From NCBI GenBank assembly GCA_964512925.1, contig CAZEKH010000003.1, positions 16,772 through 80,771 on the forward strand: 64,000 nt of DNA. Reading direction: 5' to 3'. Shown in pieces: positions 2,071-61,600 of the stretch; the stretch's first letter is position 1, and the number at the start of each line of letters is the position of its first letter. Both the position numbers and the translations under genes were made by a program. The notes beneath the pieces are model-generated. The model was not told the origin of the DNA. It saw nothing but the letters and a program-made list of their open reading frames with translations, and did not search any database. The stretch comes from an uncultured Candidatus Saccharibacteria bacterium. Its GTDB lineage: Bacteria; Patescibacteriota; Doudnabacteria; UBA920.

Positions 2071-2088
2071 TTCCGCCAGAAGGCGGAA
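2071..2088. repeat. GC-rich palindrome TTCCGCC-N4-GGCGGAA; a related palindrome recurs in the tRNA island
   Basis: ttccgccagaaggcggaa read directly; TCCGCC-N2-3-GGCGGA copies at 15321-15335, 15461-15475, 16134-16147 and a related 14991-15016 hairpin. Confidence 0.5.
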
Positions 2089-2560: not shown

Positions 2561-4636
<2,076 letters not shown>

Positions 4637-15170: not shown

Positions 15171-15290
15171 GTATTTATTTTTAATGGCTGTGCCATGAAC
15201 TTGAGCAAGCTATATACAGCCCTGAACTACTCACCATAAATGTCTCTAGTATAGGGCATAAACTATCCTAAAAGATTTGCGAATAGTTTA

Positions 15291-15335
15291 TGGTGCCGGG
15301 AAAGGGAATTGCACCCCTGATCCGCCTATGGCGGA
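15291..15335 (-). pseudogene. Decayed tRNA fragment (T-arm plus acceptor 3' strand and CCA) fused to a TCCGCC-TAT-GGCGGA palindrome
   Basis: Minus strand ..CAGGGGTGCAATTCCCTTTCCCGGCACCA has a T-arm and CCA end but no complementary 5' acceptor strand; it shares the unusual T-loop TGCAATT with the tRNA-Met at 15370-15446. Confidence 0.45.
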
Positions 15336-15369
15336 CTTATGTACCCCGCTAAAAGAATTGTTTTCTTTT

Positions 15370-15446
15370 TGGTAGCGGAGAGTGGAATTGCACCACTGAC
15401 CTTGGGCTTATGAGTCCCACGCTCTAACTAACTGAGCTACTCCGCC
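15370..15446 (-). tRNA. tRNA-Met (anticodon CAT), elongator type or possibly tRNA-Ile2; unusual T-loop
   Basis: Minus strand GGCGGAGTAGCTCAGTTAGTTAGAGCGTGGGACTCATAAGCCCAAGGTCAGTGGTGCAATTCCACTCTCCGCTACCA; acceptor with G1-U72, D-stem GCTC/GAGC, anticodon loop CUCAUAA, T-stem AGTGG/CCACT; T-loop TGCAATT has G at position 55. Confidence 0.78.
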
Positions 15447-15475
15447 AAAAAATTTACTAATCCGCCTCTGGCGGA

Positions 15476-15513
15476 CTATGAGTCCCACGCTCTAACTAAC
15501 TGAGCTACTCCGG
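15476..15513 (-). pseudogene. Partial duplicate of the tRNA-Met 5' half (acceptor 5' strand to anticodon loop), preceded by a TCCGCC-TCT-GGCGGA palindrome at 15461-15475
   Basis: ctatgagtcccacgctctaactaactgagctactccgg nearly identical to 15400-15446 of the intact tRNA-Met but lacks the 3' half. Confidence 0.5.
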
Positions 15514-15532
15514 CTCTCATAAAATAACTAAC

Positions 15533-15568
15533 AAAAAACCTGCGGACAGCAGGAAAAGGCTGTCACAA
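15533..15568 (-). terminator. Rho-independent terminator downstream of tRNA-fMet
   Basis: Minus strand ..gacagccttttCCTGCtgtccGCAGGtttttt: stem CCTGC/GCAGG followed by a T6 run. Confidence 0.5.
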
Positions 15569-15575
15569 TAATTTT

Positions 15576-15879
15576 TGGTTGCGGGACCCGGACTCGAACC
15601 GGGAATCTCAAGGTTATGCATACCACTACAATTTTCATTGCTTTGCTTGGCAAATTTGTGGTCTGGACTTTATCTTCACCATAGCTTTTTGCTTTAGGTG
15701 TCTGCCATTAAGTCTCTACGCCTTTCCCAAAAATATTTTGGGACTTGGTTCGGGATTACCATTTTACAGGCTTCCCCGAATTTGACAGAATTCACGGCTA
15801 AATTTCTTATGCCGCAGCCCATTGCGAGATTAAAATCTCTAACTCGAGCCTTGCGAGATGCCAATTTCTCTATCCCGCG
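15576..15879 (-). tRNA. Initiator tRNA-fMet (anticodon CAT) interrupted by a 228-nt group I intron between positions 33 and 34
   Basis: 5' exon (minus, 15879-15847) CGCGGGATAGAGAAATTGGCATCTCGCAAGGCT; 3' exon (15618-15576) CATAACCTTGAGATTCCCGGTTCGAGTCCGGGTCCCGCAACCA. The spliced product has a perfect cloverleaf with a C1xA72 mismatch and an A11:U24 pair (bacterial initiator determinants), anticodon loop CUCAUAA, T-loop TTCGAGT and CCA. Confidence 0.8.
15619..15846 (-). ncRNA. Group I self-splicing intron in the tRNA-fMet anticodon loop
   Basis: Intron follows exon U33 and ends in a terminal G (..GUGGUAUG). Recognisable conserved elements in canonical order: P-like AAUUCGGGGAAGCC, Q-like AAUCCCGAAC, R-like GUAGAGACUUAA, S-like AAGAUAAAGUCC; P7 pairing GACUU/AAGUC. 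No ORF inside. Confidence 0.7.
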
Positions 15880-16117
15880 ATACAGCAATTTTTAGGTATT
15901 GCCTACCTGCGCCAGTCTTAAAATATTTTTCCCTGATCTTAGCTTCTTTTAAAGTTTTAAATTCTTCAAAATAAACCAATTTCCAAGGACCTTTATTTCT
16001 AGTGTAGGAAGGAAAATCAATATTAGTATTATGTTGTTCCAGTCGTTTTATAACATTAGAGGATACCCCTTTGTATAGTAAACCTTGTGGATTTTGAATT
16101 ACATAAGCAGTAAACAT
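15839..16117 (-). CDS. Small GIY-YIG nuclease superfamily protein (YhbQ/UPF0213-like), read-through C-terminus overlaps the tRNA-fMet 5' exon
   Basis: 92 aa; AYVIQNPQGLLYKGVSSNVIKRLEQHN...WKLVYFEEF..EAKIREKYFKTGAGRQYL matches the GIY-YIG catalytic core; the last ~13 codons lie over tRNA-fMet positions 1-33. Confidence 0.72.
   Translation of the reverse strand: MFTAYVIQNPQGLLYKGVSSNVIKRLEQHNTNIDFPSYTRNKGPWKLVYFEEFKTLKEAKIREKYFKTGAGRQYLKIAVSRDREIGISQGSS
15855..15882. repeat. 28-bp direct repeat copy 1 (tRNA-fMet positions 1-25 plus 3 nt of 5' flank)
   Basis: gagatgccaatttctctatcccgcgata; identical copy at 16148-16175 on the other side of the GIY-YIG gene. Confidence 0.8.
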
Positions 16118-16147
16118 AATTTAAAAATTACGATCCGCCATGGCGGA

Positions 16148-16175
16148 GAGATGCCAATTTCTCTATCCCGCGATA
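16148..16175. repeat. 28-bp direct repeat copy 2: orphan duplicate of the tRNA-fMet 5' end (acceptor plus D-arm), abutting the palindrome tccgccatggcgga (16134-16147)
   Basis: Exact 28/28 match to 15855-15882, read directly. Confidence 0.8.
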
Positions 16176-16221
16176 TTTTTCTCACCTCAATAATTATACA
16201 GTATTATTAATTTTTTTGCAA

Positions 16222-16256
16222 CATAAAACCACTTCAGTTTTGGAAGTGGTTTTATG
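16222..16256. other. Long perfect hairpin (14-bp stem)
   Basis: cataaaaccacttcagttttggaagtggttttatg; T-run precedes rather than follows the stem, so not a canonical terminator. Confidence 0.4.
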
Positions 16257-16290
16257 TTCTCGCGTATAGCGGGAAAGTGCAAAGCGAAGC

Positions 16291-16365
16291 TTAGCGCTTC
16301 TTTTTCTTGGCGCCGCCTTTTTTCTTGGCGACTTTCTTCTTTGCAGTTTTTTTCTTGGTAGCCAT
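16291..16365 (-). CDS. Possible 24-aa lysine-rich peptide MATKKKTAKKKVAKKKGGAKKKKR
   Basis: ATG preceded by AGGGAGA (spacing ~12 nt) and an in-frame upstream stop; 14 of 24 residues Lys. Below the ORF-track size cutoff. In an AT-rich genome it could be spurious. Confidence 0.25.
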   Translation of the reverse strand: MATKKKTAKKKVAKKKGGAKKKKR

Positions 16366-16523
16366 TTTGGGCTAGTCTCCCTGGAGTCTTAACTGAATTT
16401 TGGCTAAGCTCCATTAATTTTCTACAGCTCGGATATAAATTCCGAAGGAGTAGCTGATTTAGATTTTTCTTTTGCTCTGATTTATTTTCGTTTCTGTAAA
16501 GAAATATTATATTGCAGCTTTCT

Positions 16524-17252
16524 TTATATATTGTAAGAACTTTTGAAATGTTTGTCAAGCAAATTTTTGTCAACCAAAATATTTTTTAACAATAATTTAT
16601 TTTTTTTTGATTTTAGTTTTTCAATTTCCTCTGCTATTTTATTTTTACTAATATATTTTTGTAACAAATCAAAACTATTTTTTATTTGTAAAAATGCCGT
16701 AGGATCTAAATTTAAACCCAGTTCCAAACTCAACCTTAGAGCCCTAAGCATCCGTAAAGGGTCTTGCAATATCCTATTTTTTGGATTTCCTACAAACTTA
16801 ATTGTTTTATTTTTTATATCTTTAACCCCGCCGTAAAAGTCCAGAATTTTTTGGTTTTTTGGGCTGAAATATAAGGAATTTATAGTAAAATCCCGCCGGC
16901 TTGAATCTGTTTTTGCGGATGTAACGAATTTTATTTGAGGAAACCTACTGCCTGTATAGGTTTCCGATCTAAATGTGGCAATTGCGGCTGTAAGTTTTTC
17001 AGATAGAGCCACTATTACCCCGAAATTTTTATAACCTGAATTAAAATTAATAAAATATTTTTTCAAAATAAAAGCAACCTCTTCCGGGGTTGCGGATGTA
17101 GCTATATCAATGTCCTTTGCGGTTTTTAAAAGAAGAAAATCCCTGGTTGTGCCACCGACAAAGTAGGTCTCAGGAAAGTTTTCCACAAGCGCCGAATAAA
17201 TATTGAAGCCGAATTTTTCCAGTTTTGTTTTTGGTTTGAAAGAAAATTTCAT
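16524..17252 (-). CDS. Minimal tRNA nucleotidyltransferase (CCA-adding enzyme family, head/neck domains only)
   Basis: 242 aa; Pol-beta NTase motifs GGTTRDFLL..DIDIAT, RRDFTINSLY, DPLRMLRALRL. Much shorter than the ~400-aa bacterial CCA enzymes. Confidence 0.78.
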   Translation of the reverse strand: MKFSFKPKTKLEKFGFNIYSALVENFPETYFVGGTTRDFLLLKTAKDIDIATSATPEEVAFILKKYFINFNSGYKNFGVIVALSEKLTAAIATFRSETYTGSRFPQIKFVTSAKTDSSRRDFTINSLYFSPKNQKILDFYGGVKDIKNKTIKFVGNPKNRILQDPLRMLRALRLSLELGLNLDPTAFLQIKNSFDLLQKYISKNKIAEEIEKLKSKKNKLLLKNILVDKNLLDKHFKSSYNI

Positions 17253-25593: not shown

Positions 25594-25642
25594 TGGAGCC
25601 GACGATCGGAGTTGAACCGATAACCTATGGTTTACGATACCA
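25594..25642 (-). pseudogene. Diverged partial copy of the tRNA-Thr 3' half (CCA, acceptor, T-arm, anticodon stem-loop)
   Basis: tggagccgacgatcggagttgaaccgataacctatggtttacgatacc parallels the genuine 3' half tggagccgaaagtgggacttgaacccacaacctgcggtttacgatacc. Confidence 0.55.
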
Positions 25643-25672
25643 TTGCTCCCCGCCTGCCTATCGCCTGGAGCC
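25641..25672. repeat. 32-bp direct repeat A (copy 2), overlapping the 3' end of tRNA-Thr
   Basis: ccattgctccccgcctgcctatcgcctggagc. Confidence 0.7.
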
Positions 25673-25742
25673 GAAAGTGGGACTTGAACCCACAACCTGC
25701 GGTTTACGATACCGCTGCTCTACCAATTGAGCTATTTCGGCG
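25667..25742 (-). tRNA. tRNA-Thr (anticodon CGT), CCA encoded
   Basis: Minus strand GCCGAAATAGCTCAATTGGTAGAGCAGCGGTATCGTAAACCGCAGGTTGTGGGTTCAAGTCCCACTTTCGGCTCCA; perfect 7-bp acceptor, D-stem GCTC/GAGC, anticodon stem GCGGT/ACCGC, loop AUCGUAA, T-loop TTCAAGT. Confidence 0.9.
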
Positions 25743-25845: not shown

Positions 25846-26646
25846 TCAGATTTTTATTTGTCTAAAATCAATTTTTTTGCCAAATAAAAATTTTGCTACT
25901 GCTTCAAAATTTTTACCTTTTTTTGTTACGCAGAAATCTTTGTTGCCACCCCTGCCCAATGTTTTAGAAATTTCTTTGTGCTTTTGCAGATACTGCCCAA
26001 GTTTTTTTGGAATTATTTCGTCCTGCGAAATAATTTTTACACTACTGCCTGCAAATTTGCGAGCAGATTTTTTTAACAGCGCATAATGAGTACAACCAAA
26101 AATAATCGCTTTAACTTTTTTGTTTTTTAGCGATTCTGTATAGTATTTTATAGCACTTTCAGCTTTAAGTAAAGAATTATTTTCAATCAAATCAACCAGC
26201 TCAGGAGCCGCGAGTTCATATATTTTGGGGTTTGAAGTTAGTTTTTCCAATTCTTTTTTATACTTATGAGACTGTACTGTACTTTTGGTGGCGATGACCC
26301 CAATTGAGTCTATTTTTTTGTTTTGAGCTATTTCTTCAAGAGTTGGGATAATGACCCCCAAAATTCTCCGATCCGGGTATTTATTTAATAAATAATTTTG
26401 CTGAACTTCCCTTAAGGCCCAAGCAGTGGATGTATTACAAGCGATAATGACCAATGAACAATTTTGTTTAAACAAAAAATCAACAGCTTTTCGCGTTCGG
26501 GTTTTTATTACGCCGGGAGACTTTTCCCCATAAGGCAGAAAAGCCGTGTCGCCCAGATATGCATAGTTAAACCAAGGAAATTTTTTGAAAATTGCCTTAG
26601 TGATTACAAGTCCCCCAAGCCCAGAGTCAAAAATACCAATTTTCAT
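25846..26646 (-). CDS. murI: Glutamate racemase
   Basis: 266 aa; MKIGIFDSGLGGL, VIIACNTSTA, GCTHYALL motifs of Asp/Glu racemase. Confidence 0.92.
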   Translation of the reverse strand: MKIGIFDSGLGGLVITKAIFKKFPWFNYAYLGDTAFLPYGEKSPGVIKTRTRKAVDFLFKQNCSLVIIACNTSTAWALREVQQNYLLNKYPDRRILGVIIPTLEEIAQNKKIDSIGVIATKSTVQSHKYKKELEKLTSNPKIYELAAPELVDLIENNSLLKAESAIKYYTESLKNKKVKAIIFGCTHYALLKKSARKFAGSSVKIISQDEIIPKKLGQYLQKHKEISKTLGRGGNKDFCVTKKGKNFEAVAKFLFGKKIDFRQIKI

Positions 26647-28730
26647 TATTGTATTCCTGCTTCAGTTAACACCCTTTTTCCAGCAGAATACCCGCCAATT
26701 TCAGCGCCTAAACAGAAAGAAAATTCGTATTTGCTCGCGTTGATTTTTTTGTAAATATATTTATTATCTTCTTCGCTACAAGTCCCGTCTGCTGGGGTTG
26801 GGCTTTCTGGCAAAATTCCTAGGTAGTTGGGGATAAAATTTTGAGGCATTCCATCTTGGCTATCTGGATATTTGTTGTAGTCATTAAAATACAACTCTAA
26901 AGCAGATGCAAATTGCCTTGCATCAGCAAGTCTTTTCGCGTCTCTGGATTTAGATCGCGCTAAGTTTAGGCTTTCAATAATATCAAAAGCATTTTCCGGA
27001 GCTGTTAGCTCTTGCGTTTTTCCAAAATCAAAATATTCAGACTCAATGGACAAAACCCCATCAAATTTAAGTTCCGAGACAATTTTTTTAATATTATCTT
27101 CCATTGAAGTATCTGTGATAAAATCGGGATTTACGCACTGTTCAGGAGTTCCTGGGCAAACTATATTCTCAATTCCTGCCGAACTTAGTTTTAAAACACC
27201 GGCTTTGTAGCCACCAGTATCAGCTCCCAGACAAAAAGTCATTTCATAATCACTATAAACTGTTTTCCCATTTAAACCCTTTAATTTTTGACCCTTTGGA
27301 GTGTACCAATAGTTATTAAAGTACTCAGTACATTGACCGGAAGTTTTTGGAGCTGTGGGAAAAATGCCTATATATAATGGACTTATGTCCACTGGCTTTC
27401 CGTTTTCCCCCGCAGGATAACCTTGGTTGTCGTTAAAATATAATTCGTATGCGGAAGCTAACTGTCTTACATCAGCCAGCCTTTTTGCGTCAGAATTTGT
27501 AAAATCATTTTCTGATGTTCGACTTGCTACCTCAGTAAGGGAAACCAAAGAAGGGAAATTACTCTCAAATTTTACTTTGTATAACCTACCGTCTTTAACC
27601 CCAACCCAAGTTTCCATTGTTTTTACTTCCATTTTATCAACCAGGGCATTTACGGCGGTTTTGATCTGCTGTACATCGCTTTCTTTTACAACTTCGCCTG
27701 AATCCTTGACAGCGCCACTGATTTTTTCAACGTATTTAGTGAAAGCATCCTTAATCCCCTGTTTATCCAGGGAATTTTTTAAGTGTAAAACTGATTGTTT
27801 CCCGATTTTTTCATTACCCAGACTTTTTTCAAGTTTAACAAAAGTGGAGTCAGACCAAATCTTGCTTAATTCTTCTTTTAGTGAGCTGTTTAAAATTGCG
27901 TTTACTTGTTTTGCACCCTTAGGTGAAGTAAGCATTTCTTTTTCGAGCTCATCAAAATCTATTTTCAACCATTCGGTTTTTCCCTCGGTATTTGCAATTC
28001 CCGCCAAAGCCGAGAAAATTGGGTTTTCACCGATATTGAAATATAAAACTTTTCCCAAGAAAAAATATTTAAAGGAAGTTGAAAAACTGCTATTGCCGCT
28101 GCCGGCTGTATATTTAACCACTGACGAAGACTTTGGATTTTGGCTGTCTGTGGTATCAACATAGTATTGTCCGTCAAAATCTAAAAAAACGTTGGAAAAA
28201 TTAAACAAAAGACCTGAAGTTGAGCTGGCGCTCGAAATACCGTTATCTTTGTAACTTATCTTAAATTTGTTGGAATAGACTGAGTCAAGCGGAGTTTGTT
28301 TATATTTATTCCAAATTTTTTGAGGCGACCCATAAATTACCGAATCTAAAAGTCCGAAAAAGTAAGCGGCTGCGCCTGTTGAAAGAAAAAAGACAAGCAA
28401 TATAAATAAAAGAATTTTGTTTATATTCCGACCTGTGTTTGCCGGGGCTTTGTAAGTTTGCCCTACTGTTGTTTGGGATGAAAGATTGCTTGAAACTTTT
28501 ATTTCTGCAGCGTTAGGGGTTCTGGCAGGGTTTTTCAAAGAAGTTTGTTCTAATTTCAGATCTTCATCTTTATTTGTAGCCGGCTTATGTTCATCCGCAA
28601 ACGCGTGTTTGACAGCCTCCTCTATTTCCACGCCCTCCCAGCCCTCGGTAATGAGGTTTTGTTTTATCTCAGCGGTGGTTAAACCGTGTTTGTGGGCTTC
28701 TACAACATAATTTACCAGATCTTTATTCAT
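26646..28730 (-). CDS. Membrane-anchored protein with two C-terminal type IV pilin-like (pseudopilin globular) domains
   Basis: 694 aa; one TM (ILLFILLVFFLSTGAAAYFF); two repeats resembling the post-helix region of CPR type IV pilins (DAKRLADVRQLASAYELYFNDNQGYP...FCLGADTGGY and DAKRLADARQFASALELYFNDYNKYP...FCLGAEIGGY). Confidence 0.55.
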   Translation of the reverse strand: MNKDLVNYVVEAHKHGLTTAEIKQNLITEGWEGVEIEEAVKHAFADEHKPATNKDEDLKLEQTSLKNPARTPNAAEIKVSSNLSSQTTVGQTYKAPANTGRNINKILLFILLVFFLSTGAAAYFFGLLDSVIYGSPQKIWNKYKQTPLDSVYSNKFKISYKDNGISSASSTSGLLFNFSNVFLDFDGQYYVDTTDSQNPKSSSVVKYTAGSGNSSFSTSFKYFFLGKVLYFNIGENPIFSALAGIANTEGKTEWLKIDFDELEKEMLTSPKGAKQVNAILNSSLKEELSKIWSDSTFVKLEKSLGNEKIGKQSVLHLKNSLDKQGIKDAFTKYVEKISGAVKDSGEVVKESDVQQIKTAVNALVDKMEVKTMETWVGVKDGRLYKVKFESNFPSLVSLTEVASRTSENDFTNSDAKRLADVRQLASAYELYFNDNQGYPAGENGKPVDISPLYIGIFPTAPKTSGQCTEYFNNYWYTPKGQKLKGLNGKTVYSDYEMTFCLGADTGGYKAGVLKLSSAGIENIVCPGTPEQCVNPDFITDTSMEDNIKKIVSELKFDGVLSIESEYFDFGKTQELTAPENAFDIIESLNLARSKSRDAKRLADARQFASALELYFNDYNKYPDSQDGMPQNFIPNYLGILPESPTPADGTCSEEDNKYIYKKINASKYEFSFCLGAEIGGYSAGKRVLTEAGIQ

Positions 28731-33574: not shown

Positions 33575-35162
33575 TTTTCTTCAACATTCTCCAAATTTCT
33601 TCCGCCTCGCGTAATTTTAGCTTAATTGCCACAAAAATGAAAGCCGCAATCCCGACCGCGCTTGAGGTGATGGATTGGAACAAAATTCCTGTTGCGGTTT
33701 GCGTATCCACCAAAGGCCCGATAATTTTTAGGGATAAATATGAAACTTCAGCCAAAATGAAGCTGGCGCAAATAATTTTTAGAGCGGAGCTTAAAATTTT
33801 TGCATTAAAAACTTTAAAATGAACGTCGGAAAAACCTTTCAGCCTTTGGCGGAGCAAAAAAAATAAAACCGTAAATCCGCTGATGCTGGCAATGGTAAAC
33901 GCCGCGGCTAAACCCGGTAGAGCAAAGGCATAAATTTTCGTAAAAACATAAGCGCAACAAATATTTATGGCAATAGCTATAGAGTTTGCAAAGACCGGAA
34001 TCTTAGTATTTTGCGTGGCATAAAAAGCTCTGGCAAATAAAGGCATTACTCCCTGTGAAAAGAGGCTAAAACAGAAAATGCCCAGCGCTGTAAAAGTTAA
34101 GCGGGTGTCATTCCAATCAAATTCTCCCCTGCCAAAACCGAGTCTTACAACATATGAGCGCATCAAAAACAGTAAAACGGAAATAGGAATTAAAAAAAAT
34201 AAAACTTTAATAGTGGAATCCTCCAGGGTTTTAAAAAATGCCGGAAAATTTCTTTCTGCGTAGTATTGGGACAAGGCAGGAAAAGCCGCAACAGAAACGG
34301 AATATCCAAAAATACCCAAAGGCACAGCAGCCAAGTCAAGGGCTAAATTGAATATTGAGATTGTGCCCGAAGTTAGAGTTGAGCCGACAATGGTTGCTAT
34401 TATTAAACTTACATTAGCCAGATCTATGCCGAAAATCCTAGGTAAAAACAGAAGAAAAATTTTTTTTAGAGCTGTCTCCTTAAACAGGATTATGGCTTGA
34501 TATTTATAGCCTAAACTTATGACCTGGGGTATTTGGGCGGCAATATGAAGAAGTGATCCCAAAATAACCCCTAACCCCCAGCCTAAAAATCCAAATTTTG
34601 GGAAAAGGTATAGAAATCCAAAAATAATCCCCAGATTATATAAGATGGGAGACAAGCTTGCGGCAAGAAACTTTTTTTGCGAATTCAAAATAGAGCTGAG
34701 TATGCTGGAAATGGTAAAAAGTACAGGTGTTATGAGCAGGAGCCTTGTTAAAAATACTGTACTCCAAAATTTTTCGCCATAAAATCCCGGCGTCAGCATT
34801 TTTACCAGTTCAGGAGCAAAAATGGCCAGGCTGCCGCAGATTACCACCATAACAGCAACTGCGCAATTCATTACAGAGTTGGCAATTTTATAGGCGTTTT
34901 TGGAATTTTTTTTAAATTCATCAACAAAAACCGGTATAAAGGAAACGGATAAAGTTCCCAAAATCATTAAATTAAAAACCAGATCGGGAATCCGAAAGGC
35001 GGCATAATAAATATCCAATTTGTCCCCTGGACCTAATAGAGAGGCAAATAACGCGCTTCTGACAAAGCCCGTCAGCCTGGAAAAAATGGTAAAAAAGCCG
35101 ATTAGAGCCGCAGCTTTTCCCACAGAAAAATTTTTTTCAAGATTTTTTAAAGTATTTATCAT
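33567..35162 (-). CDS. murJ: Lipid II flippase MurJ (MviN family)
   Basis: 531 aa, ~14 TM; MOP-superfamily pattern; 8-nt overlap with lepA. Confidence 0.88.
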   Translation of the reverse strand: MINTLKNLEKNFSVGKAAALIGFFTIFSRLTGFVRSALFASLLGPGDKLDIYYAAFRIPDLVFNLMILGTLSVSFIPVFVDEFKKNSKNAYKIANSVMNCAVAVMVVICGSLAIFAPELVKMLTPGFYGEKFWSTVFLTRLLLITPVLFTISSILSSILNSQKKFLAASLSPILYNLGIIFGFLYLFPKFGFLGWGLGVILGSLLHIAAQIPQVISLGYKYQAIILFKETALKKIFLLFLPRIFGIDLANVSLIIATIVGSTLTSGTISIFNLALDLAAVPLGIFGYSVSVAAFPALSQYYAERNFPAFFKTLEDSTIKVLFFLIPISVLLFLMRSYVVRLGFGRGEFDWNDTRLTFTALGIFCFSLFSQGVMPLFARAFYATQNTKIPVFANSIAIAINICCAYVFTKIYAFALPGLAAAFTIASISGFTVLFFLLRQRLKGFSDVHFKVFNAKILSSALKIICASFILAEVSYLSLKIIGPLVDTQTATGILFQSITSSAVGIAAFIFVAIKLKLREAEEIWRMLKKNE

Positions 35163-37306
35163 TTACTTGAAAATATTATGCCGAAAAATTTGTCAGATTC
35201 TTCTTCTGTTTCAAACGACAAGAAACTTGAATCCAATTTTTGCGGTTTAAAATTCATCCATTCTATGGTTTTACCTGGAAATTTAACCGCGTATGACAAC
35301 GTTTGTTTTTGAGCTCCCGGCTGTTTTTGCCATAACAGAGTAAAACGGTCTGTTAAAGCAAGTTTAAACGGCAGTTTGTATTTAATGTTTATAGATTTGC
35401 TCTCGCCACCTTTAAGATTCATCCAGTTTCCAAAATACGTCTTGTTCGCTTCTTTGCCGATCAGAGTGCCGGTTAAAACATCCTTAACCGCGGATTTTTC
35501 CCAAGCCAGAATGTCGCTGTCCGATTTAAAGGCATTGTCGCGGGGCATCTCTCCGATATTTTTATAGTCAAAGCCGGAAATTGATATTAATTCCGAATTT
35601 TCAGGGACAAAAACCCGTATAAACGATAAATTAAACGCGTATTCCAAGTTCGGCAGGTTATTTTTTCTTGTTATTTTTAAATTGTTTACTATACTTCCGT
35701 CTTCTAAAAATTCCGTTTCAAGTTCTAAGTTTTGCGCGATATGGAGATCGGTTTTTGTTCCGCCTAAATTCGCCGTCGCAACGCCTAAAAAATCCCTGTC
35801 AGTGGTATGAACAGAACCATCCCACCCGAATTCTTTAAAAGTATTTTGCATTTGTTGGTTTGGGCTGTAAAACATAATTTGTTTGCCAGCCGTTTGCTTC
35901 TGATAACTTTCTAGCGCCAGAAGCTTTTCAGAAACACTCAGAGTTGATATTTTTTCCAGCAAAATGGGAAATAAATCCGCTAGGATTTGTTTTGGAAGGT
36001 TTTCAGCCTTGTCTTGGCTTAAGGTTGATTGGGCTTCAATTTGTTCGGAAAAATTTTCTGCGTCTATATCCACATTTTGAGACCTAATACTAACAGTTCC
36101 GGTCAAATTTAAAAGGTCTTTTACCAATTCCGGAGTCATTGCGATTAAAAGATCCGGTGTTTCGTTACCTTCTTTCTCGTAAAATGAAATGGCTTTTTTA
36201 GCATTCGAGGGAAAATCAAAAAACCAGTTGCTATCACGCAAAAACCAACGGTTGTTAACGTTATATAAGGGGTGGGGAGGAAAAATTTCTTCAGTTAACT
36301 GGCCGTCCAAATCATAAATACTGCTGATTTTCTGCTGTTTGATTTGACCGTCTTCAATTAAAAATTTTCCATATGTCCCGATAAACCCGCCTCCGGGCCT
36401 GAGTTCGTTGTTATTTAAAAACAAAATCAATATATGTTTTTTACCGGTTAGGATCTGCCTGGTCAATCCAAACAACAAATTCAGGTTTTTAAAATCCTCA
36501 GAGGCTTGCGCGGTTATAAATTTTACTTTTAAAAACAGGTCTTGTTGGTTTTTGGGCAAAAAACCAACATTGACCTTGGACAGACTTAAGTCAGCCGCAA
36601 TGAAATACGCTTGAATTTTTTGAAAGGAAGGTTCTATTTTCGCAAATATTTCAGGGAGAGTCGGTTCCGAATACACGCCGCCGGGCGTAACTTTTATTTT
36701 AGAAATTTGTTCTAAAATTTGCGAACTTTCATAACCGGCCCCGGCCAAGGTTTTTGACGCATAAAGCAGATTTTCAGCCGTTTTTGATTGCGGTGTTAAA
36801 TCAAAAATTTTTTTTGAATCTTTAGAGGCTTGTTTTAAATCATTTTCAGCGCTGGAAAAAGTTTGAACAGCTTTGTAAAAACTTTTTTGGGCATTTACAG
36901 AATCTAAATTTGAAAGGTTTTTGCCTGCTATGCTTGTCTGGCTGATACCTAGTACGGCTTTTTCCTTAAGTCTATCTTTTACCGACAACCCATATGCGGC
37001 TAATCCGAAAAACTTCAAAGCGCCCAGGAGGGCAAAAGAAACTAGAATAAACAAACTAAAATTTGCCACAAATTTTAGTTTAAAAAATTCTTTGCTCCGT
37101 AGTCTTGCTGAATGTAAAAATCTGCGTCTTTCCCAATCCAAAAATTTAACCGTGCCGATAAACAGGTTTAAAACCATCAGGCCGAAAAAATAGCAAAGGT
37201 TAAAAATCGGTTTCCAAAAAAACGCAAAGCCGGACCCAGCTTTTAAATGGCTTGGTTTATAAAGCCCTTTTTTAAAATATAATCTGGTAATTTTTTTGTT
37301 GCTCAT
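35159..37306 (-). CDS. Large membrane-anchored hypothetical protein (DUF4012-like extracytoplasmic domain); start moved to the internal MSNKKI to give a 4-nt overlap with ftsW
   Basis: ORF 35159-37462; TM helices near the N-terminus, ~600-aa extracytoplasmic region (..RPGGGFIGTYGKFLIEDGQI..); occupies the dcw-cluster slot where murG often sits. Confidence 0.55.
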   Translation of the reverse strand: MSNKKITRLYFKKGLYKPSHLKAGSGFAFFWKPIFNLCYFFGLMVLNLFIGTVKFLDWERRRFLHSARLRSKEFFKLKFVANFSLFILVSFALLGALKFFGLAAYGLSVKDRLKEKAVLGISQTSIAGKNLSNLDSVNAQKSFYKAVQTFSSAENDLKQASKDSKKIFDLTPQSKTAENLLYASKTLAGAGYESSQILEQISKIKVTPGGVYSEPTLPEIFAKIEPSFQKIQAYFIAADLSLSKVNVGFLPKNQQDLFLKVKFITAQASEDFKNLNLLFGLTRQILTGKKHILILFLNNNELRPGGGFIGTYGKFLIEDGQIKQQKISSIYDLDGQLTEEIFPPHPLYNVNNRWFLRDSNWFFDFPSNAKKAISFYEKEGNETPDLLIAMTPELVKDLLNLTGTVSIRSQNVDIDAENFSEQIEAQSTLSQDKAENLPKQILADLFPILLEKISTLSVSEKLLALESYQKQTAGKQIMFYSPNQQMQNTFKEFGWDGSVHTTDRDFLGVATANLGGTKTDLHIAQNLELETEFLEDGSIVNNLKITRKNNLPNLEYAFNLSFIRVFVPENSELISISGFDYKNIGEMPRDNAFKSDSDILAWEKSAVKDVLTGTLIGKEANKTYFGNWMNLKGGESKSINIKYKLPFKLALTDRFTLLWQKQPGAQKQTLSYAVKFPGKTIEWMNFKPQKLDSSFLSFETEEESDKFFGIIFSSK

Positions 37307-38418
37307 TTGGAATTTTTCGCAATACTCATAATTATACCCGCCGCAAACATATTCATTATTAGCGCTGAACTTCCATAGCTGAAAAAAGGCAGAGGAATGC
37401 CCGTTAGCGGCACCAGTCTGAGCATAGCTGCTATATTGATTATAACTTGTATTGCAATCCAAGACATAATTCCAAATGCCAGCATTTTTCCAAAGCGGTC
37501 TTTTGCCGATTTCGCTATACTCGCCATACTTAAGATAAAAGCCGTATATAAAGCTAAAATGCCAGATGATCTTAAAAAACCCAACTCTTCGGCCGTAACC
37601 GCAAAAATTGAATCATTCATCACTTCGGGCAGATAATTGTGTTTCTGCCTTGAAAGCCCATATCCATAACCCCAAAATTTCCCTGATCCGACAGCCAACA
37701 TTGCTTGGTTGATGTGATAGCTGATGCCTTTTGGATCATCCTGAGGGTTTAAAAATGCGTTGATTCTGTTTGCGCGATAGGGTTCAAAATGCACAAAACC
37801 AGCCAGAAATACAATACTAGTCAAAGCAGACCAAAAAAAATATTTCCAACTTATACCTGCGGTAAAAAGCATAGAGGCGGCAATACCTCCTAAAACCAGA
37901 GCGCTGCCCAAGTCAGGCTGCCAAAGGATTAAAAAACAAAGCAACCCCGTAACAACAATCGGCGGGAGCAAGCCAAAATAAAAATCATTGATTCGGCTTT
38001 CTTTTTTTTCTGCCCAGGAAGCCAAATAAAATATCAAAGCTATTTTTGCAAGTTCTGAAGGCTGAAAAGTAAAAATACCCAAATTCAGCCAGCGCGTTGC
38101 GCCACCGGAACTGATACCCAAGCTGGAAATTTTGACAGCTAGAAGTGAAAGCAGGGCTACCACCACCACCAACCCGAGGTATTTATGCCAAAGTCTGTAT
38201 GGCACTTTCCAGCCGAGAAAAAAAGCCATTAAGCCTAAAATTAAGCCGAATGTAAACTGATGGATAATATAATAGGTTGTGGTGCCTGCCACCCGGTAAG
38301 AGTCAACGGTTGACGCGGAATATAGCGAAACAAAACCGATTGCTAAAAGTCCCGCCAGGGTAATTATAAATCCCCAGCTATTTTTTAACCCCGGGTTTGT
38401 GAGCGAATTTTTTTGCAT
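37303..38418 (-). CDS. ftsW: Peptidoglycan glycosyltransferase FtsW/RodA (SEDS family)
   Basis: 371 aa polytopic; conserved SEDS motifs (QPSELAKIALIFYLASW, QPDLGSALVL, GSGKFWGYGYGLSRQKHNYLPE). Confidence 0.9.
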   Translation of the reverse strand: MQKNSLTNPGLKNSWGFIITLAGLLAIGFVSLYSASTVDSYRVAGTTTYYIIHQFTFGLILGLMAFFLGWKVPYRLWHKYLGLVVVVALLSLLAVKISSLGISSGGATRWLNLGIFTFQPSELAKIALIFYLASWAEKKESRINDFYFGLLPPIVVTGLLCFLILWQPDLGSALVLGGIAASMLFTAGISWKYFFWSALTSIVFLAGFVHFEPYRANRINAFLNPQDDPKGISYHINQAMLAVGSGKFWGYGYGLSRQKHNYLPEVMNDSIFAVTAEELGFLRSSGILALYTAFILSMASIAKSAKDRFGKMLAFGIMSWIAIQVIINIAAMLRLVPLTGIPLPFFSYGSSALIMNMFAAGIIMSIAKNSK

Positions 38419-43883: not shown

Positions 43884-45638
43884 TTAAAACTTGCGGCTTT
43901 CTCCTGGCTTTAGAACAATTTGAGGGGTTTTTTGTTTTTCGGCAGGCACGGATTTTTCCGTGGTTTCAAAATCATCGCTAGCAATTTTATCCGGTTCGGA
44001 AATTTTTTGTTTTTGCAATTTTAACACTGATTCCCAAATTGGGTGCTGGGGTTTTTTTTGATGTTCGTTTTTGGTTTGGTTTGGCTTTTTATGTCGATCA
44101 TTTCGCTCGTTCTTTGACCATTTATTTTCACTTGATTCTTTTTTCGGGAGGTTTTTCGAATTATTGATGAAATTGCGCGTATCACTCAAAACTGGCTTGT
44201 TTAAAGCAGTTTTCACCAAAGTGTTTTCACTTTCCGGTTTTTTAACAATAACTTCAGAATCCAAATATTTGCCATTGTCAGTTGTTTCTGGTTCTAATTC
44301 GGAATCTTGAGACATTATATTTGCGCTATCTTGGTGAAATTCCGCGCCCATCCATTTGGAAATTTTCTCTTCAACTAAAGAAACTGAGTTACTGTACCTT
44401 TCTCTGGAAACTTTTATGACTTTTTCCGCATTACCCGTAAAATAGTCGGGGCTAGCGGGTATGGTGATGGCTGAAAAAGGTTCGCTGGCAACTCCGTTAA
44501 TCATTAATTTTAAAATTATATTGTATTTAGGCAGGTTTACCATATCGTTCGGGGTAAAAATCGGATCAAATTCAGTTTCAAGGTATTCCGCATCAGCCGC
44601 GCCGATTCTAAACAGAACTATGGTTCCCACGTTGCCGAAAATCGCATCCCTGACTTTAGTGCTTTTTTCCTGCTCCAGCTGGGCAATATACTGGTGGCCT
44701 ACGATCAAATTAAGCCTGTATTTTCTCGCCTCGCTCAATATTGTGGCAAAACTTTCCGTGGCAAAATTTTGAAACTCGTCTACATATAAATAAAAATCTT
44801 TTCTGTCTTCCTCGGCTATATCCGTCCTGGACATCGCAGCTAGTTGCAGTTTAGTTACAATCATAGCGCCAAGCAAGGCGCTGTTGTCTTCACCGACTTT
44901 TCCTTTGGATAAATCCATTATCAAAATTTTGCGGTTATCCATTATATCCCTCAAATCTATGGTGCTCTTGGGCTGACCTACGATGTTTCTAACAATTCCG
45001 GAAGATAAAAATTGTCCGACTTTATTTTGGATAGGCGCAATGGCTTCGGTGCGGTACTTTTCGTTATAATTGGCAAATTCATCTGTCCAAAAGGCGCGCA
45101 CCATCGGGTCTTTGATGTTGTCAACGATTTTTTTCCGATACTTTTTGTCGACATACATCCTGGTAATACCGAGCAAAGTGTTGCCAGGACTTTCCAGCAA
45201 GGCCAAGATTGTATTGTTTAAAATATATTCCATTCTGGCTGACCAGACATTTGACCAAATTTTGGTAAATACGCCCATAAGTCCGGAAGCGACTAAATGT
45301 TTGTATTTTGTATCCACAGCTTCCAAAATGTTGAAGGCTATCGGGTAATCCAAGTCAGCAGGGTTAAAATACACCACATCGTTAATCCTAGATGGAGGCA
45401 CAGAGTTTAAAATTCTTTGGATGGAATCCCCGTGCGGGTCTAAAAAAGCGATTCCGTGACCGTTGCGAATATCTTGAATAGCCATACTTTCCATCATTGA
45501 GGTTTTTCCCATCCCAGTTTTACCGATCAAGTACATATGACGTCTGCGGTCATCGGCTTTGATGCCAAAAGGCACTTCTTTGTTTCGGAAGTTGGTTTTA
45601 GCAAAAATAGTTATGGGTTCTTTTTTGGTTTCGTTCAT
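43884..45638 (-). CDS. VirD4/TraD/TraG-like (type IV coupling-protein-like) P-loop ATPase lacking its own TM segment; Lys/Glu-rich low-complexity C-terminal tail
   Basis: 584 aa; Walker A LIGKTGMGKTS, FLDPHGDS, Walker B FYLYVDEFQNF, then ARKYRLNLIVGHQYIAQL resembling the TraG-D_C/TrwB C-terminal region; last ~150 aa low complexity. Confidence 0.65.
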   Translation of the reverse strand: MNETKKEPITIFAKTNFRNKEVPFGIKADDRRRHMYLIGKTGMGKTSMMESMAIQDIRNGHGIAFLDPHGDSIQRILNSVPPSRINDVVYFNPADLDYPIAFNILEAVDTKYKHLVASGLMGVFTKIWSNVWSARMEYILNNTILALLESPGNTLLGITRMYVDKKYRKKIVDNIKDPMVRAFWTDEFANYNEKYRTEAIAPIQNKVGQFLSSGIVRNIVGQPKSTIDLRDIMDNRKILIMDLSKGKVGEDNSALLGAMIVTKLQLAAMSRTDIAEEDRKDFYLYVDEFQNFATESFATILSEARKYRLNLIVGHQYIAQLEQEKSTKVRDAIFGNVGTIVLFRIGAADAEYLETEFDPIFTPNDMVNLPKYNIILKLMINGVASEPFSAITIPASPDYFTGNAEKVIKVSRERYSNSVSLVEEKISKWMGAEFHQDSANIMSQDSELEPETTDNGKYLDSEVIVKKPESENTLVKTALNKPVLSDTRNFINNSKNLPKKESSENKWSKNERNDRHKKPNQTKNEHQKKPQHPIWESVLKLQKQKISEPDKIASDDFETTEKSVPAEKQKTPQIVLKPGESRKF

Positions 45639-58603: not shown

Positions 58604-61600
58604 CTACTTGATAATTCTCGGATCATTTTTTACCATAATTGGTAAAACCGGTCCTTTTTTAATGGCTGAAATATCGGTTTGATTGGCTTTAACAATAGGC
58701 AAGTTTGTTGTTTGCCTATTACTGTTTAATACTTCTAAAGAAGGTGCCGGTATGTATCCTTCCGGATGAAAATAATAAACGCTTTTTCCTATTCTTACCC
58801 AGCTTCCCCAAGGATGTTCCGTCCTGGGAGAAATAAAACCATAAACTTCGGGTAACTTATAACCGGTCAAGTCAGCTTTGATTACATTTTTTAAAGAGTA
58901 TCCCAGACCAGAAAATATAGAAAAGGAAGGAAATGGTATTTTACTGTTTTCATAAATATAATAAACAGTTTTGTTTTGAATAGCTAAAGATCCGGTTGGC
59001 AAGTATATGGACGGTTTAGGATTATAATTCACCGGATCGGCTTTTGTCTCAACAAGCCTGGCAAAAATCTCCATTTTTGTGAATTTACCCGGATTGTCAT
59101 TTATGATTTTAATATCGTTTTTAACCGTGCTTTGGTACGCTAACAGACTGTTTAGACTGTCAAAAGGGTATAACCCTTCAATTTTTACCAAATAAACAGT
59201 GGGATATCCGGAAAATTTCAAAACCTCGCCTTCTCTGCTGTTAAATGGCAATACTATTAAACTTAAATTTGGATTATTGCTGTTTACAGGCGGATTATTT
59301 TCCTCTGGGGCAGGGGTGGGAGTTGGAGTAGTACTTATGATTTGCGGATTAGAAGTTGGTGTTGGGGTGGGAGTTAGAGTATTAGGAACACCGCTACCAC
59401 CAGAAGAAACCTGGGTTGGAGTTGGTGTTGAATTGTTTTCCGGGGTCGGGGTAGGTGAAGCGGTGGGCGTTGGGGTTGGAGTTGGTGTAGGTGTTACAGA
59501 GGGTTCAGATAAATTCATCTGGTTATTTTCATAAGCAATTCCAAGCTGGCTGGACACGACTGAATTTAGTGAATTTAAATATTCAACTTTATAGTAAGCA
59601 ATTCGAAGGGGTATCAAAGGCAAATAAATTGTACAAGAAGTTGCGCAACTTGCATTTGCATACGAATCAGAATTTTCAAAAAAATACGTTTTATATGTGG
59701 CAGTGGAAGTTGCGGTCGCTACGCAAGATTCCCTTCTACCGTAACAAAAATAATCCGTTGGGCTTCCGTTTTCAACATAACCAAATTTTACCCTTGCCTG
59801 CGTGATGCCCATACCTGTTGGCGCTGTTAGGCTTAAGGCTGCCGGAATAAATGTTTTTCTGTCAATTCCGTCAGCTGTATAAGCAGGCGGATTTTTTATC
59901 ATCCAAATATCAGTCCTCTGCCCATTACCCCAGGTAATACCGGACATAAGCCAAGATCCGTCCGGGATCGGGGTTGCGTTAGAGTATGTGTCTGCCCAAT
60001 TGTATTTTTCCAATTTTTGTGTTAGGTGAACAGGCGAAGACGACCCTGAAGAAGCATAATATTTTGCAATGCCCAAAGAAGCGGCGGGCATAGAAAAGAA
60101 GCACGGCTTGGTGTAATCATAAGACCAACCGCAGTAACCGTCCAAGTAAAGCCCCGGCGCGTTAAAATATACGTCTCCAGCCGATGATCCGGCATAACAT
60201 TCACCAGCCTGATAAACATAACAAAATTTCCAATTGTCAGAATCAGCTGAGGTTATAGAAGAGTTGTATCCGCTAATATCTCCGAGTAATTTGCGACCGG
60301 CAAAAAACACCTGGGGCAAAGTTTTGTAACTTGTCGGAGTGGTTTTGTTTGCCGAGGCTATTTTATATAAATTGCCTGAAATTTGAGTAACGCCGCTTTG
60401 TGTCCACAAACCCCAATCCCCGCCTGATTGTCCGGCCAAGGGGGTTCCATCAAAATAAAAATTAGCTTCTTCGCCAGTGGCATTTACCTGCCTCCAAGAT
60501 GGATGGGTTTGGATATATTGCCCGGCCAGGCTGGTATTGTTTACATCTATCCTGTCAAAACCATAAACTCCGCGTTGAAGCGTGCTGGAAACCGCTGCTA
60601 AAGTTGTTGTTGACCAATTCGGCCATATATCATTTCTAAACGTGTTATATACGCCGTCATATGAGGACATAATAACACCTAAACTAATATCGCCGTGCTG
60701 CGCGGATTGAAGCGTTCTAAATGGCAGCATATTGTCTCCGTGCAAATCATCTCCTTTCCACGCAACATAACCGGCTCCTGTGCACGACTGACATGCCATT
60801 TCAATCTGCCATGTCCCAGAGAATGAGCGTTTTCCAAATGGATGCCAGGGATAATCCAAAGTTGCGGAATGATATTTTTTATAATCCCTTAAAATTACCC
60901 ATTGGTTTCCGCCTAACGATTTGACAAACAATATGCCTTCCTTGGTTCCCCCGCTGTCTGCCGCCTGAGCCTGGTCGCCAACCTGGATATCCATTGTGGG
61001 CGTGGTTGCAGCTGAATTTAGCTGGACTTTTGAAGCATCCCAAGTGCAATCTAAAAGATTTGAGCTTTCCCATGAATTCGGGTTTGCTTTACAAGGCTCT
61101 CCCTGAACAGTGATTGTCGCGCAGTTAGAGCCAGTAGCTCCATCATCCTTATAAACCTGATCTATATCCGAAGGGCAAGTTTCTGTATAAGTGTTAGACA
61201 TTGTGGAAGTGCCGGTTGAACCCACCTGAGTAACGCCGACTTTGTAAGTATCGCCCTGCAAATCTTTGGAAACCCAAAAATTGTATTGATCATTGCCTGC
61301 ATTTTGAAAAGTGTGTGCACCCGACCACCTATGAGGAGCTTTTGAAAAACTGTCAGAGCCTGAAGTTAAAAGACCGGTTGCGGCATTGACAGCGATTAAA
61401 TACGAAGGGTAATCTTGCCCCGCCCAACAACCTACATATATATAAGTTCCTTGCTGAGAGTATGAGCAATAAGGATATCTTGCTGTGTCATAACCATTTG
61501 GATCATTCGCTTCAGCCTGCTGCCAAAGACCTGTTCCTGACGAAGGCTTTGTTAATCTAACTATAGTTTTATATAGCATTGAACCGTCAGAGGTAGTTGA

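Follow-up and report, generated by a model that had tools for sequence, protein, structure and literature searches.

A compact group I intron of the IC3 type in an apparent initiator tRNA gene of a Doudnabacteria-like member of the Patescibacteria

The anticodon loop of the initiator tRNA (tRNA-fMet), between nucleotides 33 and 34 (33/34), is one of the common, previously described insertion sites of group I introns (Nakagawa et al. 2026, PMC13011429). Rows of Table S5 of that survey place tRNA-fMet 33/34 introns in Cyanobacteriota and Bacteroidota. The original cyanobacterial work (Paquin 1997; Bonocora & Shub 2001) is cited in PMC3984707, which also describes collaborative homing. Within Patescibacteria, the candidate phyla radiation (CPR), the 2026 survey found 22 intron-containing tRNA genes in 95 complete genomes. 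Most of them were tRNA-Asn/Asp genes interrupted at 35/36, and none of the introns was of an IC type; its tables also show Microgenomatia with 'Met (CAU) 33/34' introns, two to three in number. Here we describe a tRNA gene in a stretch of 64,000 nucleotides (nt) of contig CAZEKH010000003.1 (GenBank assembly GCA_964512925.1), the whole of which is called the window below. The gene is very probably the initiator tRNA gene of a Doudnabacteria-like member of the Patescibacteria, split at 33/34 by a self-splicing group I intron of the IC3 type that lacks an open reading frame (ORF).

The gene lies on the minus strand. Its 5' exon (15879..15847, 33 nt, CGCGGGAUAGAGAAAUUGGCAUCUCGCAAGGCU) comprises nucleotides 1-33 and ends at U33, and its 3' exon (15618..15576, 43 nt, CAUAACCUUGAGAUUCCCGGUUCGAGUCCGGGUCCCGCAACCA) comprises nucleotides 34-76, from the anticodon CAU to the terminal CCA. 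The ORF-less intron between them (15846..15619, CGAG...GGUAUG) is 228 nt long, and its last base, at 15619, is the omega-G. The joined exons form a 76-nt cloverleaf that ARAGORN calls as tRNA-Met(CAT), with a C1xA72 mismatch, discriminator A73, an encoded CCA and the T-loop UUCGAGU. The D stem is made of G10-C25, A11-U24, G12-C23 and A13-U22. The spliced product is 71% identical to E. coli tRNA-fMet, compared with 58% to elongator tRNA-Met and 58% to tRNA-Ile2 of E. coli. An earlier note on this DNA had described a split tRNA(CAU) with C1xA72, A11:U24, TTCGAGT and CCA, and an intron of 228 nt that starts after U33 and ends in G. These features are present in the joined-exon cloverleaf, and the boundaries agree with 117 intron-less homologues. 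The covariance search with RF00028 that the note had proposed gave one Intron_gpI match in the window (15648..15867, minus strand) at 64.1 bits, above the gathering score of 50, with an E-value of 5.9e-14. Two points of the note need correction: the exon blocks are 228 nt apart and not 268, and its 'textbook' initiator has just two of the three canonical G:C pairs at the bottom of the anticodon stem (A29:U41, G30:C40, G31:C39). Its assignment to a CPR-like host agrees with GyrB (2561-4603), which shows 82-88% identity to proteins that carry the name 'Candidatus Doudnabacteria bacterium' or 'Patescibacteria group bacterium'; NCBI places these in Candidatus Doudnaibacteriota.

The insertion point can be read from homologues that lack the intron. 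A metagenome collection was scanned with a pattern for the 3' exon in which the T stem was left free, and 120 loci were obtained (loci are referred to below by our L numbers). The gene is uninterrupted in 117 of them: directly 5' of CAUAACC stands the rest of an initiator-type tRNA, which is the predicted junction, and the bases before it are ...AGGCU (n=108), ...AGGCC (n=8) or ...AGGUC (n=1). The 5' exon of the window is in register with these homologues, in which ...GCAAGGCT stands directly 5' of CATAACC. The junction GGCU|CAUAACC is identical to that of intron-less homologues, and the insertion thus lies between nucleotides 33 and 34. Compared with the spliced product, the intron-less gene of L027 has three differences, two of which replace the D-stem pair A13:U22 by C13:G22, a compensatory change. 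Since C is the first base of both the intron and the 3' exon, the deletion could be drawn 1 nt rightward; 33/34 was chosen because group I rules place a U before the 5' splice site and a G at the end of the intron. The remaining three loci carry an insertion at the same nucleotide, of 223 nt in L011, 640 nt in L021 and 647 nt in L092, and their RF00028 scores of 76.4, 54.4 and 62.6 bits are all above the cut-off.

Nucleotide 33 itself varies among the metagenomic initiator-type tRNA genes. C33 replaces the near-universal U33 (...AAGGCC|CAUAACC) in L026, L058, L070, L083, L090, L105, L119 and L120, and the initiator-type tRNA of L037 reads ...GGUC before the anticodon. An exon with C33 would be unusable for a 33/34 group I intron, because a U is needed at position -1.

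The fold of the intron is supported by covariation. The family alignment contained 11 sequences, of which four were CPR-type introns and seven were copied from Table S5 of PMC13011429, all labelled IC3 (six 'fMet 33/34' and one 'Ile2 33/34'). A hand-drawn structure of 61 pairs covers P1, P2, P3, P4, P5, P6, P6a, P7 (a pseudoknot), P8, P9, P9b and P10; P9a was excluded from the count because MAFFT misaligns the window sequence there by one column. Standard pairs occupy 94.0% of the cells (61 pairs, 11 sequences), compared with 32-41% when partners are slid by 1-3 columns. Compensatory changes occur at 24 pairs, and none of 500 shuffles reaches the observed values. By helix, pairing in the 11 sequences is 94.8% for P3, 90.2% for P4-P5, 100% for P6, 100% for P7 and 98.2% for P8. 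The window intron forms every helix, apart from two mismatches in P2 and a shortened P5 (G.U, C-G, C-G). Folded alone with RNAfold it reaches -63.7 kcal/mol (z = -4.0), and the minimum-free-energy fold has P2-P6, P8 and P9. The strings that the earlier note had proposed as P-, Q-, R- and S-like elements are the 5' and 3' strands of P4 and the 5' and 3' strands of P7. The P7 pairing GACUU/AAGUC holds in all 11 sequences, with a compensatory change at the fifth pair (U-A, G-C or A-U), and the group I core that the note had built around it is borne out by the RF00028 match, the P1-P10 fold and the covariation.

The elements of the intron lie on the minus strand as follows. The P1 extension, a hairpin GAGAU-UUUA-AUCUC at 15826..15839, is present in the minimum-free-energy fold and is the site where relatives carry an endonuclease ORF. 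The internal guide 5'-AUG|GGCU-3' (15816..15822) pairs through GGCU with exon bases G30-U33 to form P1, and through AUG with C34-A35-U36 to form P10. The P1 pairs U.G, C-G and G-C are found in 11 of 11 sequences, as are the splice-site wobble U33.G28 and the omega-G; the P10 pairs are conserved in 11 (G-C), 8 (U-A) and 9 (A-U) of the 11. P2 (15794..15815) ends in a GAAA tetraloop, L2 (15803..15806), and has compensatory changes at all nine of its pairs. The 5' strand of P3 (15783..15789) is followed by P4-P5-P4' (15749..15780), which includes the 'P' and 'Q' elements and is seen in the Rfam alignment; P4 is invariant in all 11 sequences, and P5 consists of G.U, C-G and C-G with a loop. The P6/P6a hairpin (15721..15748) shows compensatory changes at all five P6a pairs. 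The segment 15701..15714 holds the 5' strand of P7 (GACUU, 15710..15714), where one pair covaries, J7/3 and the 3' strand of P3 (15701..15707). Next, at 15666..15700, the family alignment places P8 (CCUAAA...UAUGG, 15677..15700), J8/7 and the 3' strand of P7 (AAGUC, 15666..15670). The last domain (15622..15662) is a three-way element of P9 (ACCAC/GUGGU), P9a and P9b (CAAU-GAAA-AUUG); all three helices appear in the minimum-free-energy fold, and three of the four P9b pairs covary.

We take the CCUAAA...UAUGG sequence of P8 to be like an 11-nt tetraloop receptor, as in the Azoarcus IC3 intron. The L2 loop and P8 vary in step: GAAA occurs with a CCUAA-type P8 in the window, and GCAA with a CCC:GGG helix in the nearest relatives. 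This concerted change suggests that selection on the folding of the intron is still acting.

The P1 region also resembles the exon. The extension and guide (15822-15840, UAGAGAUUUUAAUCUCGCAAUGGGCU) and the D arm with the 5' strand of the anticodon stem (15851-15869, UAGAGAAAUUGGCAUCUCGCAAGGCU) form a 19-nt repeat of 79% identity, and the P1 region of L021 has a similar exon-like tendency. This likeness may have arisen by chance or may be left over from exon sequence.

Following standard group I chemistry, splicing would start with the pairing of the guide GGCU with exon bases G30-U33 in P1, which would set the U33.G wobble at the 5' splice site. An exogenous guanosine held in P7 would attack after U33. 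The AUG of the guide would pair with C34-A35-U36 in P10, and the terminal G at 15619 would move into the guanosine site. Joining of the 3'-OH of U33 to C34 would restore the anticodon loop CUCAUAA. The fold would probably be held together by docking of the L2 GAAA loop in the receptor-like P8, with a contribution from the GAAA loop of P9b. The intron is presumably active in vivo, because its core is intact, L2 and P8 have changed in concert, and this is the only complete tRNA-fMet gene in the tRNA cluster of the window.

The closest sequence to the window intron is that of L092 (blastn, 75% identity over 217 nt, E-value 3e-35). The next matches, among rows of Table S5, are 'fMet 33/34, IC3' introns, four cyanobacterial and two from Bacteroidota, with E-values of 1e-17 to 1e-25; core identity to the fMet 33/34 IC3 introns of the table is 65-71%. 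By this similarity, the window intron belongs to the classical tRNA-fMet 33/34 IC3 lineage known from cyanobacteria. The cyanobacterial intron spreads by means of the PD-(D/E)XK homing endonuclease I-Ssp6803I. The window intron shares with this intron of the Synechocystis PCC 6803 type the host gene, the insertion point 33/34, the P1-P9 architecture (67-71% identity over the aligned core) and a guide, AUGGGCU, that is the same in Gloeobacter. An endonuclease of the same family occupies the same P1 loop in CPR relatives of the window. The differences lie in the host, which is a member of the Patescibacteria, in the length of ORF-less copies (244-267 nt in cyanobacteria and 228 nt in the window), in the reduced P5, and in P8, which is CCUAAA/UAUGG instead of CCCUAACG/CGAGGG. 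The exon anticodon stem differs as well, being CAAGG/CCUUG in the window and xCGGG/CCCGx in cyanobacteria.

The IC3 introns of Azoarcus tRNA-Ile and Anabaena tRNA-Leu are likewise compact, ORF-less folds in a tRNA anticodon loop with GAAA tetraloops on L2 and L9. The Azoarcus P8 is of a CCUAAG/UAUGG receptor type like the P8 of the window. These introns differ in host tRNA, in insertion point (36/37 and 34/35) and in the P1 guide, and P9 of the window is a three-way element.

Similar introns are also found in phages. A search with the core pattern gave 32 contigs of IMG/VR with IC3 introns, most of them in phage tRNA-Leu genes. These phage introns (L132-L163) are up to 84% identical to the window in the P3-P8 core over 134 nt, and have the short P5 (GCCUGUGAAAUGGU vs GCCUGUAAAAUGGU) and a P8 of the CCUAAA...UAUGG type. 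In one contig, L158, a tRNA-fMet-like gene is split at 33/34 as in the window. They differ from the window intron in that most lie in tRNA-Leu(UAA) at 34/35, and in that they lack the P1 extension, have another P2 and P9, and reside on viral contigs. The resemblance is uneven along the intron: P5 and P8 of the window (15677-15771) are unlike those of L092 and L021 and match the compact phage introns L132, L153 and L160, and its P1, P2 and P9 match L092. The window intron may be of mosaic origin, or its compact, AT-rich form may have been reached by convergence.

The Patescibacteria introns of Nakagawa et al. (PMC13011429) share with the window intron the phylum, a location in tRNA genes missed by annotation and, mostly, the absence of an endonuclease gene. 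Most of them interrupt tRNA-Asn/Asp at 35/36, and they are assigned to IA, in contrast to a 33/34 insertion of IC3 type in a tRNA(CAU), an initiator, of a Doudnabacteria-like host. The two Microgenomatia 'Met (CAU) 33/34' introns lie in elongator-like tRNAs and gave no blastn match to the window intron, and the match to an Asp 35/36 intron of Patescibacteria was limited to a 41-nt stretch of P4-P5. The survey found no IC-type intron in its 95 complete genomes, and the window intron therefore extends it. It adds the classical IC3 tRNA-fMet type to Patescibacteria and is a small correction to a recent generalisation (PMC13011429). The earlier note had held such an intron in a CPR bacterium to be worth documenting. 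This stands insofar as the window intron extends that survey, and falls short in that the site is classical, that the tRNA introns of the phylum were already surveyed in PMC13011429, and that NCBI already uses a group I intron-associated name for Patescibacteria relatives of the endonuclease of this intron family. The note had also placed 228 nt near the lower size limit of the class; the intron is small and not extreme, with tRNA introns of 196-214 nt in rows of Tables S3 and S5 of PMC13011429 and a related phage-borne intron of ~196 nt by our own count. The novelty is thus modest: the window adds a host lineage to a known intron family, the element is of an established kind, and the understanding of group I introns is unchanged.

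In the long introns of L021 and L092, the loop that closes the P1 extension contains a 149-amino-acid (aa) ORF. It matches PDB 2OST (E-value 1e-51) and Pfam PF11645, a PD-(D/E)XK family (E-value 6e-45); the L021 endonuclease has no match in NCBIfam. We take 2OST to be the endonuclease I-Ssp6803I of the tRNA-fMet intron of Synechocystis. Read by eye, the ORF given with cyanobacterial introns in Table S5 encodes almost the same protein. The 3' end of the L021/L092 ORF overlaps the guide and P2, with its stop codon in J2/3. By eye, the window sequence GAGAU-UUUA-AUCUC stands in the same place as GAGAU-[447-nt ORF]-AUCUC of L021. The earlier note had reported no internal endonuclease ORF in the window, and this held: four tested ORFs over the intron locus, out of five listed of at least 40 aa, had no Pfam match, and tblastn with the L021 ORF gave no sign of a degraded endonuclease gene anywhere in the window. 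At E <= 1e-10 the endonuclease family comprises 1,220 members, few of which were checked for lying inside introns. Its closest named homologues are called 'endonuclease' and 'group I intron-associated PD-(D/E)XK endonuclease [Patescibacteria group bacterium]' by NCBI, and more distant ones come from Nitrospirota, Armatimonadota, Bacteroidota and Poribacteria. Two homologue loci from Patescibacteria metagenome-assembled genomes were followed to sequence, L128 (GCA_036266555.1) and L130/L131; they have endonuclease-bearing introns of 645 and 652 nt at 33/34, downstream of cca.

The orthologous locus occurs in three states in this CPR clade: intron-less, with intron and endonuclease (640-652 nt), and with an intron that lacks the endonuclease, as in the window. 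Ten loci have an AtpD 71-92% identical to that of the window; eight of them, including the closest (L027, 92%), are intron-less, and L092 and L021 have intron and endonuclease. This polymorphism fits the usual cycle of intron gain, endonuclease loss and intron loss, and the three states make the locus a neat illustration, from nature, of the homing cycle in an organism whose genome is very small. The window intron was probably left by an endonuclease of the I-Ssp6803I type, or awaits one, the ORF having been either lost or yet to be gained.

Default ARAGORN and the Rfam tRNA model report no tRNA at the split locus, as the earlier note had anticipated for automated callers, and the split tRNA-fMet genes of four relatives are missed in the same way. 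Those of L128 and L130/L131 are among the genes that ARAGORN leaves unreported. The initiator tRNA of the window genome and its relatives is therefore invisible to default tRNA callers, and missed split tRNAs inflate the apparent counts of 'missing essential genes' in CPR genomes. When introns are allowed, ARAGORN delimits the gene correctly, with an intron of 228 nt, which it places at position 37 of a tRNA-Ser(cga). This call was rejected for 33/34 because the intron-less homologues and group I rules favour the latter.

Several points weigh against an initiator gene split by a working IC3 intron. P5 is cut to ~3 pairs and P2 contains a 2x2 internal loop, although a short P5 also occurs in other natural IC3 introns. 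The IC3 label is carried over by homology from introns so labelled in PMC13011429, and splicing of the tRNA-fMet precursor is predicted from sequence. The anticodon stem has two G:C pairs where three are canonical; the same stem is found in all 117 intron-less homologues, so the two-pair stem is the normal state of the lineage. The view of the genome covers 64 kb, and a second, intron-less tRNA-fMet could lie elsewhere. An upstream cassette, described below, parts the intact gene from the sole promoter-like site. Taken further, these points would make the intron a decaying relic that no longer splices, in a pseudogene copy whose working counterpart lies elsewhere. The minimal P5, the internal loop of P2, the absent endonuclease ORF, a neighbourhood rich in tRNA fragments with a cassette insertion, and the limited genome view agree with such a history. 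It is nevertheless improbable, since the intron has kept all its core helices, the 5' splice-site U.G pair, the P1/P10 guide and the omega-G intact, the joint change of L2 and P8 suggests ongoing selection on folding, and the exons remain within three positions, two of them compensatory, of the nearest intron-less homologue. Moreover, in 16 loci from the 3'-exon scan the fMet-Met-Asp cluster holds the sole tRNA-fMet on the stretch examined.

The host gene could instead be an elongator tRNA-Met, or a tRNA-Ile2 with a lysidine CAU anticodon, as the incomplete set of initiator-typical G:C pairs might suggest; rows of PMC13011429 do include 'Met (CAU) 33/34' introns of Patescibacteria and, in Bacillota_B, one at Ile2 33/34. 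We regard this as very improbable. The gene has C1xA72 and A11:U24 and is closer to E. coli tRNA-fMet than to either alternative, and a separate elongator-type tRNA(CAU) with a paired 1:72 lies 130 nt downstream, in all syntenic relatives as in the window. By contrast, the Microgenomatia 'Met' cases of those rows have U1:A72 and U11:A24, and their introns are unrelated. That the window comes from a metagenome-derived assembly raises the prospect of a chimeric or contaminating intron, which can practically be dismissed: both junctions conform to group I rules and yield a perfect tRNA, homologous introns occupy this very nucleotide, within the same gene order, in independent assemblies of other samples, and identical GyrB and GIY-YIG proteins occur in NCBI and Logan assemblies, on contigs of up to 146,576 nt. 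An identical neighbouring contig is also present in SRR14271336.

Directly upstream of the tRNA-fMet gene lies a cassette (15839..16175, minus strand) composed of a repeat copy, a hairpin and a GIY-YIG ORF. The repeat is a perfect 28-nt direct repeat of TAT and tRNA-fMet nucleotides 1-25, at 16175..16148 and 15882..15855, and the second copy is part of the real 5' exon. The hairpin TCCGCCATGGCGGA (16147..16134) precedes the ORF (16117..15839, minus strand), which matches PF01541 (E-value 1.8e-12) and has no match in NCBIfam. The ORF has no stop of its own: its frame crosses the second repeat copy and the 5' exon and ends at a TAG 8 nt into the intron, and its homology to relatives extends only as far as the start of the real tRNA. 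In L123, an intron-less tRNA-fMet is preceded by the same three parts (repeat, hairpin and ORF), and L126 shows a syntenic variant of this arrangement. The GIY-YIG frame of L123, L126 and L013 terminates in ...SQGS*, with the TAA of the anticodon loop as its stop. In L027, the closest syntenic relative, there is no space for the cassette. GIY-YIG homologues also lie immediately 3' of tRNA genes, of tRNA-fMet in L078/L080 and L013 and of tRNA-Val(GAC) in L127. L013 has a second, partial tRNA-fMet copy after the ORF, with perfect repeats of 30 nt and 15 nt, and L078 a tandem degenerate tRNA-Met copy. A strictly intron-associated endonuclease was rejected as an explanation of the ORF, because the cassette is also found at intron-less tRNA-fMet genes (L123, L126, L078, L013) and at tRNA-Val (L127). 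It looks like a small mobile cassette that targets tRNA genes. The nearest precedent known to us is SegB of phage T4, a free-standing GIY-YIG homing nuclease in the phage tRNA cluster.

The intron and the cassette might be read together as layers of a nested selfish arrangement at the initiator-tRNA gene, which we think unlikely. The GIY-YIG protein could then be a free-standing homing nuclease aimed at tRNA genes, and the ORF-less intron could either shield the gene from this nuclease or be mobilised in trans, by 'collaborative homing'. Translation of the nuclease, cleavage by RNase P and splicing would compete on one transcript.

The hairpin of the cassette belongs to a small repeat family. 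The palindrome TCCGCC-N2-4-GGCGGA occurs four times in the window (2072-2087, 15321-15335, 15461-15475 and 16134-16147), where zero copies are expected from 100 shuffles. Three copies lie in the tRNA cluster, each beside a tRNA fragment and followed by a T-rich tail, and two of them score as terminator-like in a consensus scan. The elongator tRNA-Met (15446..15370, minus strand) is flanked by two hairpin copies and by the halves of another tRNA(CAU). Upstream of it, on the same strand, is a 5' half, GCCGGAG...CUCAUAG (15515..15477), followed by a hairpin and a T-run; downstream, after a hairpin, is a 3' half that ends in CCA (15320..15291, UCAGGGGUGCAAUUCCCUUUCCCGGCACCA). The acceptor strands of the two halves are complementary at 6 of 7 positions, and 21-nt direct repeats bound the insert (15287-15515). 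The arrangement resembles that of an older tRNA gene interrupted by an insert that brought a replacement copy. L126 has a similar hairpin-bearing pseudo-tRNA-Met, and relatives otherwise have a plain fMet-Met-Asp cluster, beside which that of the window is unusually scarred.

The gene order around the locus is atpA-atpG-atpD-atpC, cca, tRNA-fMet, tRNA-Met and tRNA-Asp, with rmuC-NYN further downstream, and it is common, in whole or in part according to contig extent, to many metagenomic loci. A consensus scan finds a promoter-like TTGCAA-17-TATAAT (16193..16221, minus strand; 10 of 12 matches) ahead of the duplicated tRNA 5' fragment, and a similar TTGCAT...TATAAT stands ahead of the tRNA fragment in L126. 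By the same kind of scan only, a terminator-like hairpin CCUGC-UGUCC-GCAGG followed by U6 (15539..15553, minus strand) lies 23 nt downstream of the tRNA. The cca gene is represented by two overlapping minus-strand ORFs in different frames, 16524-17252 (242 aa, with a PolyA_pol head domain) and 16187-16573 (128 aa), the second of which has no Pfam match and no tblastn match in relatives; the split may be due to a frameshift or to a divergent C-terminal part. A contig search with the CCA-adding enzyme (16524-17252) gave one distant match, L002, at 37% identity, from which neither taxon nor synteny was gained. Between atpD and atpC lies a PD-(D/E)XK ORF (PF13366, 17831-18220, minus strand). It is a sporadic insertion in the ATP synthase operon, because it has the same place in L115 and L092 and is absent from L021 and others.

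Elsewhere in the window, two tRNA-Thr(CGU) calls abut without a spacer at 25594-25741 (minus strand), the upstream one scoring 71.9 bits and the downstream one 31.9 bits. The low score and the missing spacer mark the downstream call as another degenerate tRNA duplicate. A homologue of VirD4/TraD-like coupling proteins, with weak NCBIfam matches, is encoded at 43884-45638 (minus strand). Large ORFs without a family match lie near it, at 35159-37462, 26646-28730 and 58604-63304, and the coupling-protein homologue and its neighbours may constitute a type IV secretion or conjugation-like region.

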